Origin: Candidatus Caldarchaeum sp.
GTDB lineage: Archaea > Thermoproteota > Nitrososphaeria_A > Caldarchaeales > Caldarchaeaceae
Reading direction: 5' to 3'
NCBI GenBank assembly: GCA_038831915.1
Contig: JAWBKB010000012.1
Location: forward strand, 1 to 50,099
DNA: 50,099 nt
Shown here: piece by piece, positions 35,821 through 41,917 of the stretch
How the letters are laid out: the number at the start of each line of letters is the position of its first letter
Position numbering within the stretch: position 1 is the first letter of the stretch
Made by a program: the position numbers and the translations under genes
Notes under the pieces: model-generated
Told to the model about the DNA's origin: nothing
Databases searched by the model: none
What the model saw: only the letters and a program-made list of their open reading frames with translations

Positions 35821-36243
35821 AAAATTCAGGTACAGCGACGTGTCAAGAAGGGCATCATAAAAAAATCCACGGAGGCTAGGTGAAGGTTGCACCCATAACA
35901 TCAGCATACTGGCGAGGTTTCGACAGTCATAACAACGAGCTGGTCGAAAGCGAGGTCTAACTTCAGCACTGAAACACTCTCTAGAGTCAACGGAAAAGCG
36001 AGTAGCGTCCGTCAGGTGATTATGCCAGCCTAAGCTGTGATCTGAACGCCGGTCTCTCCCTCCGACGCAGCTTCCATCACCTCCCTGCAGGGCTAAGGTT
36101 AACGCTTCAGACACGATTTTTCAAACGTTTCACAAGCAGGCTTGCCTACTTCATGCTATGAAGAGCCCCCGACAGCTAGAGAGCCTGAGCTGGACAGTTA
36201 TATGCTAGGCTCCATAACAATTATTAGGCAAGCTGAAGGTTTG

Positions 36244-37059
36244 ATGTTGGTGGCGGGTTTGGCTGTTGACCTGAAGCGGGAGCTGTTGAGGCTTCTCGAC
36301 GAGGATGAGGAGTTCAGGTACGCTGTGGCCGGCAGGATAGGCATACTGGAGATACTGAAACACCTCGACAGGCTGGAGGAAGGACAGAACAAGCTGTGGG
36401 AGGAGGTGAGAAGCCTAAGAGAGGGACAGAACAAGCTGTGGGAGGAGGTGAGAAGCCTAAGAGAAGGGCAGGAGAAGCTCTGGGAGAACCAGAACAGGCT
36501 GTGGGAAAGCAACAACAGGCTGTGGGAGGAGGTGAGAAGCCTAAGAGAAGGGCAGGAGAAGTTATGGCAGGGACAGGAAAAACTGTGGGAAGGGCAGAAG
36601 AGGCTGGAGGAGTCTATGGCCAGGCTTCAGGATGCTGTGGCGTTGCTGGCCCGTACGCAGGGAGAGCTAGCGAAACAGGTTGGAGCCCTCTCCGAGACTA
36701 TAGGCTTCGGGCTTGAAGACATAGCCAAGGTTGTTGTGCCGGGATGGCTTCAGAGACATGAGGGTATAGTTATGGCTGAAGAGTTCACCCGCAAATGGAT
36801 AACAGTCGACGGAGAAGAGATAGAGGTAAACCTCTACGGTGAAGGAGAGAAGGATGGAAGAAAGCTGGTCATCATCGGAGAAGCAAAATCACGAATATAC
36901 AAACGTGAGGTTGAAGCGTTCGGCGCATGGGCTGAGAAGATAGCCGCAACCATAGGCCAGGAAACCTACAAATTCATGTTCGGCTACCTCATACATCCAT
37001 CAGCAGAAGAGGAAGGGCGAAAAAGGAAAATCAAACTAATAGCGTCATACATGCGGTAA
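36244..37059 (+). CDS. Heptad-repeat coiled-coil protein with C-terminal PD-(D/E)XK-like domain (DUF3782-like archaeal family)
   Basis: N-terminal LLRLLDEDEEFRYAVAG, (E)GQxKLWE heptads, C-terminal EVNLYG...IIGEAKSR. Start uncertain (36244 ATG or 36259 TTG). Confidence 0.75.
   Translation: MLVAGLAVDLKRELLRLLDEDEEFRYAVAGRIGILEILKHLDRLEEGQNKLWEEVRSLREGQNKLWEEVRSLREGQEKLWENQNRLWESNNRLWEEVRSLREGQEKLWQGQEKLWEGQKRLEESMARLQDAVALLARTQGELAKQVGALSETIGFGLEDIAKVVVPGWLQRHEGIVMAEEFTRKWITVDGEEIEVNLYGEGEKDGRKLVIIGEAKSRIYKREVEAFGAWAEKIAATIGQETYKFMFGYLIHPSAEEEGRKRKIKLIASYMR
36379..36600 (+). repeat. Intragenic 21/42-bp tandem repeats
   Basis: Near-identical 42-bp units at 36379-36420 and 36421-36462, a further copy near 36519-36561, and degenerate 21-bp units. 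Confidence 0.9.
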
Positions 37060-37126: not shown

Positions 37127-37552
37127 TTATCGTTGAACTTTTTCTGTATCGCCCCAAGCCCATACCTTCTCCCAAATTGTTCCCATCATCCTCTGTGTGA
37201 AGTTCTTGACGAGCCTGATAACCAGCATCCCATGGGGTCTTATACGTCCTTGGCTGGATATCAGCCCCAACTTAGCCAGCTCATCCTCTTCAAACGCTAA
37301 TATGTCACCCAGATCCCTTACCATGTGAAGGTTTGTCAATACAACGATGTGGGCGAGTGTTAGCCTCTCAGCCTTCTCCTCAACCATCCTCAGCTTATCC
37401 ATGTAGATTCTCCTGTTCTTCGTCTTTCTTATGGATGGGCTATGCTGGGCTCCTACGCTTCTGATGTTTCTCCTTACATAAGAGAGGAGCTCAATAGGGT
37501 TTGGTAGTCTTTTCTTCGTGTAGGCCGGGGGATTAAGTTGCAGCCTTACCAA
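37127..37552 (-). CDS. Hypothetical protein (possibly the frameshifted C-terminus of the adjacent ORF)
   Basis: 141-aa ORF overlapping the next ORF by 20 nt; no motif recognised. Confidence 0.45.
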   Translation of the reverse strand: MVRLQLNPPAYTKKRLPNPIELLSYVRRNIRSVGAQHSPSIRKTKNRRIYMDKLRMVEEKAERLTLAHIVVLTNLHMVRDLGDILAFEEDELAKLGLISSQGRIRPHGMLVIRLVKNFTQRMMGTIWEKVWAWGDTEKVQR

Positions 37553-38303
37553 TTACCTCTGCTACGACTCTCCAGAAAGGTGTGGGAACTGGTTTAAGCG
37601 TTGAGAGGGCGAGCTGTTTATGTTCCGAGAAAGGCTTGAGGATTGCGGATGCTACGTTGTAGCTGACGTTATAGTATCCCAGTCCGAATACGATTTCTGC
37701 TATTGCTGCGGGACAAAGCGCTGAGACAGCGATCTTCAGCGGGCCTGTGAGCGAGGGGGCTTCAGCAACCTCCCTGCCTGTTATGTTCTGAATCAACTTC
37801 ACCCAGCCCTCTACATAGGACCTGAGGCGTGAATCCTCCTCTTCTAAAGACTTTACAGCCCCCTCCACAACCTGATCAATCTCTGACACGATGCCGCGGA
37901 ACGAGTGTCCTCCCCCGTCGAGAAGAGCCTTAAACCGGTCTTCATATTTTGCGGTAATCTTCCAGCCTGCGTTGTTCAGCAGAACGCTCACGCGTTCGAT
38001 GAAGACGCTGGAGTATGCCAGATGAGGCCAGTTAGCTACCCACGCCGAGATAAACACATCTTTTCTGGTGAAGTAAAGATTGAGTTGGAGAGGATGGCGG
38101 CTCATTCTAGAACGTATTATCACGTTTTTGGGTATGTGGCCCGTATGGAGGTTACCAGCCTCCAGAAGACTGTCCAACCCCACTTCAAAAACACTACCAT
38201 CATCACTCTCTCCTAAACATCCATACCACCTACCCTTTATGACCAACCTCTTTTCACGCCACCTCTTCTCAACCTCCAGCTTAATCGGCCCAAACAACGC
38301 CAT
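37533..38303 (-). CDS. Hypothetical protein
   Basis: Protein-like composition from ATG 38303 (MALFGPIK). The upstream extension runs into non-coding hairpins. Confidence 0.55.
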   Translation of the reverse strand: MALFGPIKLEVEKRWREKRLVIKGRWYGCLGESDDGSVFEVGLDSLLEAGNLHTGHIPKNVIIRSRMSRHPLQLNLYFTRKDVFISAWVANWPHLAYSSVFIERVSVLLNNAGWKITAKYEDRFKALLDGGGHSFRGIVSEIDQVVEGAVKSLEEEDSRLRSYVEGWVKLIQNITGREVAEAPSLTGPLKIAVSALCPAAIAEIVFGLGYYNVSYNVASAILKPFSEHKQLALSTLKPVPTPFWRVVAEVIGKAAT

Positions 38304-38422
38304 AATGTTCTGTTTTCTGGAGGTATTTGAGGCAGGAGAGTAAGCTGAAAGTGGGAAGATAAACTTTTTACAAAGCCAGAACACCATACAGACAGCCACA
38401 CGTGGAGGGAGAGGGAGTTCAA

Positions 38423-38516
38423 AGCCCCTTGTGTGGCTGGGGCTGTTGGGGAGCGCTCGAGCTCCCACAGAAAGAGAGCGCTCGCGCTCTCAAAAAAGTC
38501 AGGCGCTAGAGCCTGA
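38423..38516. repeat. Array of short hairpins with about 25-nt period and shared loop GCT(C/A)G(A/C)
   Basis: GGGAGC-GCTCGA-GCTCCC (38449-66), GAGAGC-GCTCGC-GCTCTC (38474-91), TCAGGC-GCTAGA-GCCTGA (38499-516). A fourth stem AGCCCC/GGGGCT at 38423-44 has a different loop. Confidence 0.8.
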
Positions 38517-38616
38517 ACAGCTAGAACAAAACATCTCACCAACACATCTACTCAACAAACTCCAACAACATTCTCCGAACAACACCTACATGGAAACATG
38601 AATAGACACCTCCTAA

Positions 38617-38842
38617 CCCCCGACAGGAAGCCCCTCCGCCGGGGAGTACCGCCTCCCCGGTGGGAGGGGAACACCTCCTGTCGGGGAACGGCGCTTCCTG
38701 CGACGAGCTTCCCGGGAGAGCCATGTCCACGGGGGACATGGTTGAAGGCCCTGCCTCCGGGGTTGAGGAGGGGCCTGCTCCCGGGCCTAAGCGGCCTTCC
38801 GTCGCAGGGAGCGGCTCGGAGGACGGACGCCTCCCCGAGCCG
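38617..38842 (+). ncRNA. Putative highly structured GC-rich RNA element of unknown class
   Basis: 11-bp stem 38618-28/38676-86 with a nested long stem; 14-bp stem 38692-705/38800-813 enclosing a multibranch; terminal hairpin GGCTCGG/CCGAGCC. G-U wobbles favour the + strand. Confidence 0.55.
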
Positions 38843-39733
38843 GCAAGGCCAGGCGTCAAGGGGGGAGAGAGACGTAGCAACGCTGTCCGCAGACCTTTGA
38901 GACCACGAGAGCTCAGAGTAAAACTGTACGACGAAGTCACGAGGTTGCGGAGCCTTGGCCTGTCCTACAGCAAGATAATCAAGAAGATAAACGATGAGTA
39001 CGGTGTCAGGCTGAGAAAATCGCACGTCAGCGGCTGGATCAGAAGACTGCACAGCCCCTACAACGCAATACTGATACCTACCATCGACATGCTGAAGCCT
39101 TCTGTGGAGCTTGCCTACATCATTGGAGTAGTAGCGGGAGACGGGTACATACGGAGCAAATGGCATAAAACCAGACGATACTACAAATCGATAATAGGGC
39201 TTAAAGTAGTCGACCTCGAGTTCGCTGAAGAGTTCGCCCTCTGTCTAGCCATAGTGCTTGGGAGAGAGCCACCGCAACCCAAGCAAACGATAAGAGGATA
39301 CACCATAGAAGTCGCCTGCAAAACGCTTCACGGCCTGTTGACAAAACCCATTGACATAGAAAAACTCAAACCCTACATAGAGCACGACAGCAGGTGCACG
39401 TCAGCCTTCCTACGAGGGTTCTTTGACAGCGAAGGCAGCGTATCCGAAAACGGTAGCATAACAGTCTGCAACACAGACATAAAACTGTTGGAATACGTCA
39501 AACAGCTACTGTCTAAGCTCGGAATCGAAGCCACCGGACCCCGTCTAAGCCATAAAAGCGGTCAGATCGTCGTAGACCCAAGAACGGGAAAGACAGGGAT
39601 CTCGAGGAAGGACTTATACCTCCTTTATATCCGTGCGTCTTCACTACCGACATACTATCGACGCGTCGGTTTCACCATACACAGAAAACGCAAAAGGCTC
39701 GAAGAATACTTGACAAGACGAGGGCTTCTATGA
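38660..39733 (+). CDS. Free-standing double-motif LAGLIDADG homing endonuclease with N-terminal HTH (true start probably near 38870-38900)
   Basis: Motifs LAYIIGVVAGDG and FLRGFFDSEG; HTH-like LGLSYSKIIKKI...KSHVSGW; no intein splicing termini. The first ~70 codons are translated GC-rich hairpins. Confidence 0.85.
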   Translation: MGGEHLLSGNGASCDELPGRAMSTGDMVEGPASGVEEGPAPGPKRPSVAGSGSEDGRLPEPARPGVKGGERRSNAVRRPLRPRELRVKLYDEVTRLRSLGLSYSKIIKKINDEYGVRLRKSHVSGWIRRLHSPYNAILIPTIDMLKPSVELAYIIGVVAGDGYIRSKWHKTRRYYKSIIGLKVVDLEFAEEFALCLAIVLGREPPQPKQTIRGYTIEVACKTLHGLLTKPIDIEKLKPYIEHDSRCTSAFLRGFFDSEGSVSENGSITVCNTDIKLLEYVKQLLSKLGIEATGPRLSHKSGQIVVDPRTGKTGISRKDLYLLYIRASSLPTYYRRVGFTIHRKRKRLEEYLTRRGLL

Positions 39734-40518
39734 CTCTATCCCTTTCCTCTCTCCCCCCATTTCACCAGGCTCTCAGCTTAAGGTCTAAAGGTTTGTCACG
39801 GAGAATCAGCTCGGCACTGCTTAGCTCTATATTGTTTGTTGGGTTAGATCGAGTCTACTAGGTTTTAAGGTGTTCTTCAGGGTTATCGTATTCTTGGATG
39901 AAGGCGATGTGGTGGACGACTTCTCCCTCACCTTCCCCGTATCCACGTTGACGGTCAATATTTTGCCTCCTTATGTACCAGAGCTGTTTGACCGTCGAAC
40001 ACTATGGAAGACAGCTTCATGTTTGTTTCAAAGGCTCTTATAACCTGTCCTCCATAAATTTGTAAAAATGCTTCTAATCTTTCCCATCTGGTTCTGTATG
40101 TGAGGCTTAGCGAGGCTCCTATCTTCCCCCATATTTACACTTGGGCATAGCCATTTTGTCCTACATTGCTTTGTGCGCAGGCGAACATTTGTCCACTTGA
40201 AAGACTGTAGCCAGTCAATGCGTTGCCACCTTTGTATGTTTCAGCACCCTTGAAAGGCGGCCAAGACTTGTCGATTCTAATGATTGAATAGCGCACGGGA
40301 TAAGTAATCATGCTGTGAGAAGGGCTATAACAATGGAATGGACATATTTTCCATCAAGTCGGACAGTAGAATCAAGTTCTACGAGCTCTCATGGGAGTTG
40401 TAGCAGTTACTCCTAAAGGCAACATCAGCTCGAACAGTAGGCAATGCAGATATTCAACAGATAACACGTTTCCTATTATTTAAATCCAACCGAAAAATTT
40501 ATATAGCAGGACGCCTTG

Positions 40519-40594
40519 TAGCGGGGGGTGGACTCGAACCACCGATCTCCGGGTTATGAGCCCGGCGGGTTTTACCTGGCTACCCTACCCCGCT
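40519..40594 (-). tRNA. Initiator tRNA-Met(CAT)
   Basis: AGCGGGG...CCCCGCTA with A1-U72 pair, anticodon arm CCGGG-CTCATAA-CCCGG (three consecutive G-C pairs), T arm GGTGG-TTCGAGT-CCACC. Confidence 0.95.
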
Positions 40595-40616
40595 TCGTTG
40601 AGGATGTGTGTGTGCA

Positions 40617-40630
40617 TTTATTTAAGTTTC
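40617..40630 (-). promoter_or_regulatory. BRE/TATA box of tRNA-iMet
   Basis: Minus strand GAAAC-TTAAATAAA, with the TATA box 23-31 nt upstream of the tRNA 5' end. Confidence 0.6.
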
Positions 40631-41424
40631 AGTGGGGTTGGGATGGTGGGTTGTTTTTGAGTGATCGTTGTTGGTGGGTTGTTCCTAAGGCTTAGTGGCG
40701 TGATGTGTTTTTCAAATTTTATGTGTTGTTTGGGTTTTATGCTCGCTATCCAGTGGGGTTTTGCGGTGGTGTCTTGGGTGGGTTTGTGGGGGTGAAGCTC
40801 GTCCACGTGGTTTGGGAGTAGCCTCTGTACTGCAATATTTTCGGCCTTTCTAGCCCTCGCTATGTGAGCTGTAACGGTTTCACTACCATCTTGTTGCTAG
40901 GGCCTAGAAAGCGGGTATATCGGGGCCACAACGTGATCCTTCTTCCTCGAATGGGTTATTTGTCTCGACGGAGGCTTCTTGAACGTGGACATCTCGACTA
41001 TCTTGAGCACAGGCTTTTAACCTTGGCAAGCTGGCCTAGGTCTTTGACGTTTGCGCTAATTGGTAGGGTTAGTAGGGCCTGCGATTTTGGAGAGTTTCGT
41101 TTGGGGAGGTTGTGGCCTGTCCGCAATATCGATAGCCTTTCTCCCCTCTCTGTCGAGGAGTAGAAGATCCACATCTTTTTTAGCTGGTCTCTCCGCAAGC
41201 CATGAACTCATCCCTGCCGCAACAATTTTGATCTCACTTCTAAGTTGAGTCCATGCATGTCATGCTGTTGAATTTCCCTGAAGTGGTTGCGAGGGTTACG
41301 AGTGTCTCGAAGAGGCTGGAAAAAGCCTCCCCATGGATATGGAAGCCTAAAGAACCTATACAAGCTTGAAACGGTGCCCAGACTTGGTCAGGTCCTGAAG
41401 GCCGTCACCAATACTCTAGCAGTG

Positions 41425-41879: not shown

Positions 41880-41917
41880 TATGGCCCGGCGGGTTAACCT
41901 GGCTACCCTACCCCGCT
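41880..41917 (-). repeat. Displaced duplicate of the tRNA-iMet 5' half (att-like direct repeat)
   Basis: AGCGGGGTAGGGTAGCCAGGTTAACCCGCCGGGC-CATA versus the intact tRNA AGCGGGGTAGGGTAGCCAGGTAAAACCCGCCGGGCTCATA. Confidence 0.9.

Follow-up and report, generated by a model that had tools for sequence, protein, structure and literature searches.

A repeated, pseudoknotted RNA ahead of mobile genes in Caldarchaeales-type archaea

A folded RNA domain and the gene behind it

The stretch of DNA considered here (hereafter, the window) comprises 50,099 nucleotides (nt) of contig JAWBKB010000012.1, from the genome of a Candidatus Caldarchaeum sp. (assembly GCA_038831915.1). Its plus strand carries, at positions 38606-38872, a structured RNA domain of ~265 nt, followed by a helix-turn-helix (HTH)-LAGLIDADG homing-endonuclease gene (Table 1). 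Rather than a housekeeping RNA, the fold is a member of a multi-copy leader RNA family linked to mobile elements; the family is undescribed, and in Caldarchaeales-type archaea its copies sit at the left end of repeated units. Among solved structures, I-DmoI comes closest to the LAGLIDADG open reading frame (ORF; E 1.7e-4). Its probable TTG start at 38897 is based on the N-termini of homologues; the longest open frame begins not there but at 38660.

Table 1. Features of the RNA, of its unit and of the associated protein family; positions are those of the window unless a locus is named.
Feature	Position	Strand	Description	Basis
Four short GC hairpins	38394..38523	+	GCCACA..TGTGGC, GGGAGC..GCTCCC, GAGAGCG..CGCTCTC, TCAGGC..GCCTGA; 5' end of apparent transcript	
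CA-rich, G-poor spacer	38524..38613	+	Ends in ACACCTCC (38606-38613)	Sequence
P1, long hairpin	38618..38686	+		Fold; pairing kept across copies
P1 outer stem	38618-38628 with 38676-38686	+		Fold
P1 inner stem	38631-38646 with 38653-38669	+		Fold
Central domain	38692..38813	+	14-bp helix and three-way junction	
14-bp helix	38692-38705 with 38800-38813	+	Encloses three-way junction P3/P4/P5	Fold
P3	38711-38718 with 38778-38785	+	Encloses P4 and P5	Fold
P4	38719-38743	+	Inside P3	Fold
P5	38746-38776	+	Inside P3	Fold
P6 hairpin	38814-38820 with 38835-38841	+	Domain 38814..38857, with conserved GGCAAGGCC	
Pseudoknot	38826-38832 with 38851-38857	+	P6 loop (GACGCCT) with AGGCGTC	Covariation across copies
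G-run	38860..38871	+	GGGGGGAGAGAG; 3' end of RNA domain	Sequence
HTH-LAGLIDADG homing-endonuclease gene	38897..39733	+	Motifs VAGDGY, FFDSEGS; Pfam LAGLIDADG_3 (3.4e-18)	
C-run	39749..39760	+	CTCTCTCCCCCC; just past the ORF; complements the G-run	
P0001	L006:142-1029		Member of the ~290-amino-acid family	
Own-genome genes of the ~290-amino-acid family	G000: C3:397-1254, C3:6241-7089, C4:48585-49382, C7:70453-71214, C31:2-778			

The domain lies in an island of high G+C (0.68-0.76 per 100-nt segment from 38600 to 38899), whereas G+C is 0.42-0.60 over the preceding 500 nt and 0.46-0.57 past its end. Folded as the plus strand, it gives -155.0 kcal/mol; 200 dinucleotide shuffles give -116.05 ± 5.58 kcal/mol, and none of them folds as stably (z -6.98). 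The minus strand is nearly as stable (-151.1 kcal/mol; z -7.50), again with none of 200 shuffles matching it, so a single sequence cannot tell which strand is folded. The original prediction for this region had been a multi-stem fold of ~230 nt and plus polarity at 38617-38842, belonging to none of the transfer RNA (tRNA), ribosomal RNA (rRNA), signal recognition particle or RNase P classes. Each of its helices is present in the sequence and in the minimum-free-energy fold; its 3' end was drawn too short, since the unit continues through the pseudoknot and the G-run.

The view of an unclassified structural RNA is supported by the lack of an Rfam match, by covariation and by RNA-library contigs across the fold. 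No Rfam 15 family matches the fold at the gathering threshold, at which the window gives two tRNAs only, and ARAGORN likewise reports tRNAs only, located elsewhere in the window. Even up to E 10, the best Rfam match within 38400-39000 is an unrelated small RNA (E 0.27), and no group I intron or known ribozyme model matches in that interval. A literature search found no description of this RNA or of the ~290-amino-acid (aa) protein family discussed below, most subscription journals and supplements lying outside its range.

Copies of the RNA in genomes and metagenomes

A DNA search found relatives of the fold in 5 of the 17 genomes of the same family, several per genome and often at contig ends. 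Covariance model R1, which covers the 5' core, placed the RNA in 13 of the 76 genomes of the order (by family, with the own genome not counted: f1, 6/17; f2, 4/19; f3, 0/4; f4, 2/35), and model R2, with hand-set P1 and P4, gave 29 sense copies in the genome loci examined. The own genome holds only one full copy. In metagenome contigs, a pattern scan gave at least 120 matches; the copy counts reported here are from 80 loci among the matches listed, where R2 found 68 copies at E ≤1e-8. Two scans of viral contigs returned 0 matches. The source names of the associated proteins are Ca. Caldarchaeum and Nitrososphaerota metagenome-assembled genomes.

Around the core, the copies differ in ways that set the window apart. 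The spacer end ACACCTCC is a weak version of the C-blocks that stand 5' of P1 in other copies, and the same G-poor spacer with C-blocks precedes P1 in the metagenome copies. In most full-length copies a further segment, segment C (CTCTCCGGCGGCCTAGGCC), pairs with the 3' tail and shows compensating changes. Its equivalent in the window forms the 5' arm of the 14-bp helix and pairs within the domain rather than with the tail; together with the weak upstream C-block and a probable start lying 25 nt past the G-run, this makes the window copy look like a partly remodelled member of the family.

Pairing is conserved, and the plus strand is the folded one

Because MAFFT misaligned the hairpin arms, model-based alignments were used; RNAalifold, run on the mixture of full and P1-deleted copies, gave a misleading consensus. 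Among the 29 genome copies, 92.3% of 771 cells are paired, a share that falls to 40.7-55.5% if the 3' partners are displaced by 1-3 columns, and double changes occur in 8 of the 30 pairs. The corresponding values for 60 distinct metagenome copies (among the matches listed) are 94.7% and 36.4-61.9%, with double changes in 12 pairs, and none of 500 shuffles attains the observed value on any of five measures. Both P1 and P4 keep their pairing through double changes in genome and metagenome copies alike. For P1, helices 1 and 2 are paired in 95.4% and 92.8% of cells in the genome set and in 99.5% and 86.8% in the metagenome set, where helix 1, the outer stem, was fixed by the search pattern and where helix 2 has eight double-change pairs. 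For P4, double changes affect 5 of 9 pairs in the genome copies and 4 of 9 in the metagenome copies, and its arms occur, for example, as GCCATGTCC/GGACATGGT, GCCATGACC/GGTCGTGGT, GCCACATCC/GGGTGTGGC and GCCATGGAA/TTCCATGGC. P5 is found as CCTCC/GGAGG, CTCCC/GGGAG and CCACC/GGTGG. Single-sequence folds of seven copies recover the P3/P4/P5 three-way junction and the P6 hairpin as in the window, and hairpin loop lengths vary while the stems are kept.

The partner of the P6 loop is the sequence after the conserved GACAAGGCC. In a set of 41 distinct loop/tail pairs, a loop is complementary to its own tail over 5.88 nt on average and, in cross pairs, to another tail over 4.34 nt; none of 2000 permutations attains the own-tail value. 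Eight different complementary sequence pairs occur; such a set would be hard to explain other than by a pseudoknot, although the kinship of the sequences inflates tests of this type.

Comparison of the copies also speaks to polarity. The 29-copy alignment holds 621 Watson-Crick, 91 G-U, 13 A-C and 46 other mismatch cells, the A-C cells being those that would be wobbles if the opposite strand were the folded one. This excess of wobbles indicates that the plus strand is folded, and R2 scores agree with it (116.5 bits on the plus strand, 36.2 on the minus). The plus polarity originally proposed is thus borne out, by comparison only. These observations also bear on the suggestion, raised in the original prediction as a single-stranded DNA origin, that the inverted repeats work at the DNA level (e.g., as a single-strand origin, a site of recombination or a palindrome like those of miniature inverted-repeat transposable elements), with any RNA being incidental. 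The minus strand does fold as well as the plus, duplex palindromes (CCCGGG, GGCCTAGGCC and the P1 arms) are among the conserved motifs, and copies are found where repeated units end and where contigs break. In a miniature-element palindrome, however, neither a strand bias of mismatches (91 G-U to 13 A-C) nor a covarying tertiary pairing would be expected, and both are found here; loop lengths vary with the stems kept, the fold is co-transcribed with the downstream ORF, and no viral contig matched. We regard a DNA-level element as very improbable, and the origin hypothesis is disfavoured by the pseudoknot and the co-transcription.

A coding explanation, in which the stretch would be a Gly/Pro-rich N-terminal extension of the LAGLIDADG protein (ORF 38660-39733), draws on an open frame that leads into the LAGLIDADG domain, whether read from 38660 or from a conserved ATG at 38723, both in the window and in the G014 orthologue, and on some database proteins that include the translated fold. 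Open frames are, however, expected at 70% G+C. In other copies the downstream gene is in a different frame or lies beyond a stop, translation from the conserved ATG yields wholly different peptides in subfamilies that keep the helices, and the stem changes are compensatory. Since the frame relative to the downstream gene varies and the ATG peptide is not conserved, the conservation is not coding, and this explanation, to which we give next to no credence, was rejected.

The repeated unit and its ends

Homology among related units extends from -3 to -46 of P1, or from further upstream, to about +1233 to +1255, which places the RNA at the left end of a unit of ~1.3-1.5 kb. C-rich motifs with a T-tract that resemble the C-run CTCTCTCCCCCC come after the units in other genomes. 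In four loci (L007, L045, L080 and L121) the RNA begins ~15-40 nt past the stop codon of a gene resembling the primase large subunit (ending ... CIKNGELCPRNIRNPLDY*), and in L013 only a fragment of ~70 nt of the end of this primase-like gene precedes the RNA.

Sequence complementarity around the unit was weighed against chance in several ways. The G-run and the C-run of the window are perfect 12-nt complements, a match seen in 2 of 500 shuffles, at a site 14 nt outside the back-joint described below. With the exception of this pair, the fold shares 6-7 nt of complementarity with the four sequences around the joint sites, which 194-458 of 500 shuffles reach. The variable segment between P3 and P6, considered as a guide, has own-locus matches of 7-10 nt compared with a median of 7-9 nt elsewhere (23 copies). 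Such tests have little power, given that known guides are short and that the boundaries of the element are not firmly placed. Upstream C-blocks and the 3' tail are complementary over 6.38 nt, compared with 6.01 nt for permuted pairs (84 of 5000 permutations are as high), and their pairing includes two 12-nt versions of differing sequence, CCCCTTCCCCTC and TAACCTCCTTCT.

Genes behind the copies

The gene that follows the RNA differs between copies. Among the 29 genome copies, 13 stand directly before the gene of an unannotated protein of ~290 aa, 4 before an operon that ends in this protein (with a small ORF and/or a methyltransferase first), 1 before a methyltransferase fragment and 10 before LAGLIDADG genes, and 1 is cut by a contig end; the ~290-aa protein therefore lies behind 17 of the 28 assessable copies, directly or in an operon. 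The 68 metagenome copies (among the matches listed) divide into 51 before the ~290-aa protein (matches of at least 120 aa), 2 before the operon, 2 before a diverged superfamily member (read by eye as VFLDFGR ... KSDENDV), 5 before LAGLIDADG genes and 8 too short to tell. Because the first ORF may be IS110-like, LAGLIDADG, a small ORF or a methyltransferase, a role at the 5' end of the transcript suits the RNA better than a tie to one protein.

The distance between RNA and start codon also varies. In copies with a protein of the FFCDVH type, the pseudoknot strand is followed at once by G-blocks that contain the annotated start, GTG GGG AAG GGG; in other copies the G-blocks equivalent to GGGGGGAGAGAG hold or adjoin the start of the first ORF.

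The ~290-aa protein family

The ~290-aa protein has 76 database relatives, all named "hypothetical" and without Pfam domains, and a Pfam search of the protein itself gave none. It occurs in 33 of the 76 genomes, often in many copies each, and three diverged types (FYVDVH, FFCDVH and VFLDFG) are found behind the RNA. An AlphaFold2 model (predicted local distance difference test score 87.9; predicted template-modelling [TM] score 0.82) has as structural matches TIGR-TasR with tigRNA (E 1.1e-5) and two recombinases solved with bridge RNA, IS621 and ISCro4 (TM-score 0.63), and NCBIfam returns a weak match to "IS110 family RNA-guided transposase" (E 0.01). A sequence profile of the family recovered no IS621 or TasR chain from the PDB. 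Invariant residues are D23, D46, D65, D115, H25 and K110; no Ser, Thr or Tyr is invariant. The family may represent an IS110/Nop5-like but Ser-less lineage within the TACK archaea. Vaysset et al. (bioRxiv 10.1101/2024.06.21.599552) have argued that Nop5 of the C/D-box ribonucleoproteins derived from an IS110-like ancestor, possibly from an archaeal clade outside their data. In the Evo-PIN/COMPASS preprint, IS110 elements were mined by Pfam domain architecture, which the ~290-aa family lacks.

Most genes of this family have no such RNA. G033, G028 and G011 hold at least 31, 20 and 9 protein matches, respectively, and 0 R1 matches each, and upstream of ten RNA-less genes there are other genes, unrelated sequence or mere remnants of the fold. 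The own genome has eight matches, five of them long, none of which is on this contig. Downstream of the IS110-like gene, ~0-150 nt past its stop codon, five loci (L040, L049, L051, L055 and L054) share a conserved structure in which the arms of a stem, GGAAAGGCCGGCG and GCCGGCCTTTC, flank the perfect palindrome ACCGTATCCTATAGGATACGG; the C-rich T-tract motif comes next. This 3' structure is a candidate RNA or end-sequence of the units.

The genes behind the RNA bring in its main rival explanation, a partner RNA, i.e., a guide- or bridge-type scaffold used by the IS110/TasR-like proteins. The window copy would then be an orphan whose nuclease gene has been replaced by a LAGLIDADG gene, and it could still serve, or be moved by, IS110-like proteins elsewhere in the genome. 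Several findings fit: the likeness of the protein model to TIGR-TasR, IS621 and ISCro4 with the weak NCBIfam match; the frequency and the three protein types with which such genes follow the RNA (55 of 60 assessable metagenome copies among the matches listed; 17 of 28 genome copies); the position at the extreme left end, as for bridge RNAs and the omega RNAs of IscB; an own genome with several protein genes and one full RNA copy; and a possibly guide-like 12-nt match between the G-run and DNA immediately beyond the unit. However, most IS110-like genes are without the RNA, which in turn also heads LAGLIDADG, small-ORF and methyltransferase genes, and the separate structure 3' of the IS110-like genes could be their RNA. 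No two-loop bridge architecture is visible in the folds, the variable segment has no copy-specific match at its own locus in the 23 copies, and the protein lacks an invariant Ser/Thr/Tyr, a Pfam family and a PDB sequence match to IS621 or TasR. On balance, we consider a partner RNA possible, though rather unlikely.

The bridge RNA of IS110 elements carries two internal loops that are complementary to target and donor DNA, and adjoins the gene of a recombinase with DEDD RuvC and Tnp domains. Like the bridge RNAs of IS621 and ISCro4, the present RNA is a non-coding structured RNA (~180-270 nt) directly 5' of a gene, at the left end of a unit of ~1.3-1.5 kb, and the gene product behind most family copies is predicted to have the IS621/ISCro4 fold. 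It differs in that no Rfam or covariance-model match and no pair of guide loops is seen, k-mer tests of candidate ends and flanks are at chance (G-run/C-run excepted) with element ends that are loosely defined, and the family protein lacks Pfam IS110 domains and an invariant Ser, its place in the window being taken by LAGLIDADG. HEARO/omega RNAs (IscB, IsrB) are likewise large, pseudoknotted and located at the left boundary of the element, immediately upstream of a transposon-borne nuclease gene, but here there is no Rfam match, the family protein is not IscB-like and no guide was identified. A nexus pseudoknot has been described for omega RNA.

RNA-library contigs and joints across the unit

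Co-transcription was examined with Logan contigs of three metatranscriptome runs (two studies) over 37400-40700. Contigs span the fold and the HTH-LAGLIDADG ORF, with one of X13 unbroken over 38437-39008 and others of X8 covering 38604-38748 and 38719-39593. RNA contigs of both studies start at 38415-38437 and stop at 39710-39752, positions beyond which a DNA run extends; since contigs cannot show strand, level or true ends, this is a weak hint of transcript ends. The RNA runs gave no contig cover at 39842-40500 or at 37400-38400, apart from a weak contig at 38028-38201.

One X8 contig, from one run, joins position 39735 back to 38469 (1267 nt; depth 22; shorter side, 47 nt), at a depth similar to that of its neighbours (18-39), and could equally reflect a circular or a tandem form, of RNA or DNA alike. 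The acceptor site, 38469, lies inside the stretch of four short hairpins (38394-38523). Homologues of this stretch occur upstream of a TnpB-like ORF in G009:C42 and at the syntenic G014 locus, as well as in long RNA-library contigs of X8 and X13, and the hairpins look like a further leader module common to mobile genes.

The back-joint could be attributed to processing, with 38469-39735 as an intron- or ribozyme-like unit that is cut out and ligated to a circle, as in the archaeal rRNA introns with LAGLIDADG genes. The depth of the joint, a second joint from 38624 to 38719 in another X8 contig (skipping 38625-38718) and the intron-encoded nature of I-DmoI agree with this, and PMC3082918 reports introns with homing endonucleases in the small-subunit rRNA of Ca. 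Caldiarchaeum. The likeness to rRNA introns of the I-DmoI type, which form stable circles, lies in the LAGLIDADG ORF, the adjoining structured RNA and the circular-type joint in an RNA library. In contrast to those introns, the unit lies outside rRNA and tRNA genes, no bulge-helix-bulge motif forms at 38468/38469 and 39735/39736 when 38420-38520 is cofolded with 39690-39790, and the RNA mostly stands with another gene. In addition, the homology to G009 continues straight through 38469, group I intron and ribozyme models gave no match (see above), terminal repeats were seen in 0 of 17 short contigs, and the joint is in a single contig of a single run, for which a DNA circle or a tandem copy would serve equally well. 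Excision as a circle thus appears improbable to us. The lariat-capping ribozyme GIR1, which precedes homing-endonuclease genes in twin-ribozyme introns, is also a structured, pseudoknotted RNA directly 5' of such an ORF; it shares no sequence or model similarity with the present RNA, which belongs to an archaeal host and a non-intron site.

A cis-acting leader as the tentative interpretation

The reading that we tentatively favour, at somewhat short of an even chance, is that the RNA is a cis-acting 5' leader, enclosing the translation start, of a mobile-gene transcript (HTH-LAGLIDADG in the window). This preference is based on the following reasons: (i) the RNA is co-transcribed with whichever ORF comes first and heads several unrelated genes; (ii) in the FFCDVH-type copies the pseudoknot strand and G-blocks run into the annotated GTG start; and (iii) the upstream C-blocks can pair with the tail. 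The overlap with the start is thus found in FFCDVH-type copies and not in the window, while RNA contigs span fold and ORF. In such a scheme, the leader would fold co-transcriptionally into P1, the P3/P4/P5 junction and P6, after which the P6-loop pseudoknot and a closing pair between the upstream C-block and the G-rich tail would lock the region in which the first ORF starts. This might gate translation of the nuclease or recombinase, e.g., by keeping it low or shielding it from read-through transcripts. Fold-back inhibition in IS10 and IS50, which limits expression from read-through transcripts, similarly involves an outer-end sequence able to pair with the translation start region of the first gene; short hairpins serve there, in contrast to the multi-domain pseudoknotted fold of ~265 nt here.

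Several observations weigh against a leader of this type. A fold of this size, with an invariant junction sequence and a pseudoknot, exceeds what a simple fold-back block needs. The C-block/tail signal is weak, is largely generic C-run against G-run, and amounts to only 5 nt in the window. The G-run lies 25 nt from the start codon in the window and ~75 nt from it in the G014 orthologue; therefore, it is not a ribosome-binding site in either. The presence of the ~290-aa superfamily behind 55 of the 60 assessable metagenome copies fits a partner RNA at least equally well. The P1 3' arm is missing in 5 of the 29 genome copies, which, taken with the X8 contig that joins 38624 to 38719, suggests that part of the fold is dispensable or decaying. 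Finally, pairs were counted on alignments that had been fitted to the model, and the outer stem of P1 in the metagenome set came from the search pattern itself.

Neighbouring features of the locus

Elsewhere in the window, the tRNA-Met gene (40518-40594, minus strand) lies ~780 nt downstream of the HTH-LAGLIDADG gene. HTH-LAGLIDADG genes are also found tail-to-tail beside tRNA genes in L046, L047, L031, L036 and L059 and, within the own genome, at G000:C1:6845-7423, C15:3-416 and C4:105800-106252, an adjacency suggestive of homing sites next to tRNA-gene 3' ends. At 41880-41917, 1.3 kb away, the 5' half of tRNA-Met (40555-40594) recurs with 92.5% identity, resembling an attachment-site duplicate. 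Upstream of the RNA, a coiled-coil ORF (36142-37059) contains internal 126-nt repeats (36368-36479 and 36494-36605), and paralogous blocks occur on C3 and C9.

Implications

The boldest form of the partner-RNA hypothesis would make the fold the cognate RNA of a Ser-less, Pfam-invisible RuvC family of the IS110/TasR/Nop5 type in thermophilic TACK archaea, that is, a new RNA-guided mobile system in which the RNA scaffold (P1, three-way junction and pseudoknot) occupies the left end of the element, the nuclease can be swapped for a protein-guided LAGLIDADG homing endonuclease, as in the window, and the 39735/38469 joint represents an excised circle. We hold this to be possible, though rather unlikely. 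Irrespective of that hypothesis, should the RNA family prove to be what the data suggest, it would be a new class of large, pseudoknotted and well-covarying RNA of thermophilic archaea, with more than 95 copies and absent from Rfam 15, tied to an unannotated multi-copy protein family with the bridge-recombinase/TIGR-TasR fold. An archaeal IS110-like family that lacks the catalytic serine and has its own structured RNA would make the question of Nop5 ancestry directly testable. In the more modest reading, the RNA would be an unusually elaborate 5' leader common to two unrelated kinds of selfish nuclease genes, and its presence ahead of both points to a modular leader that is exchanged by mobile genes.

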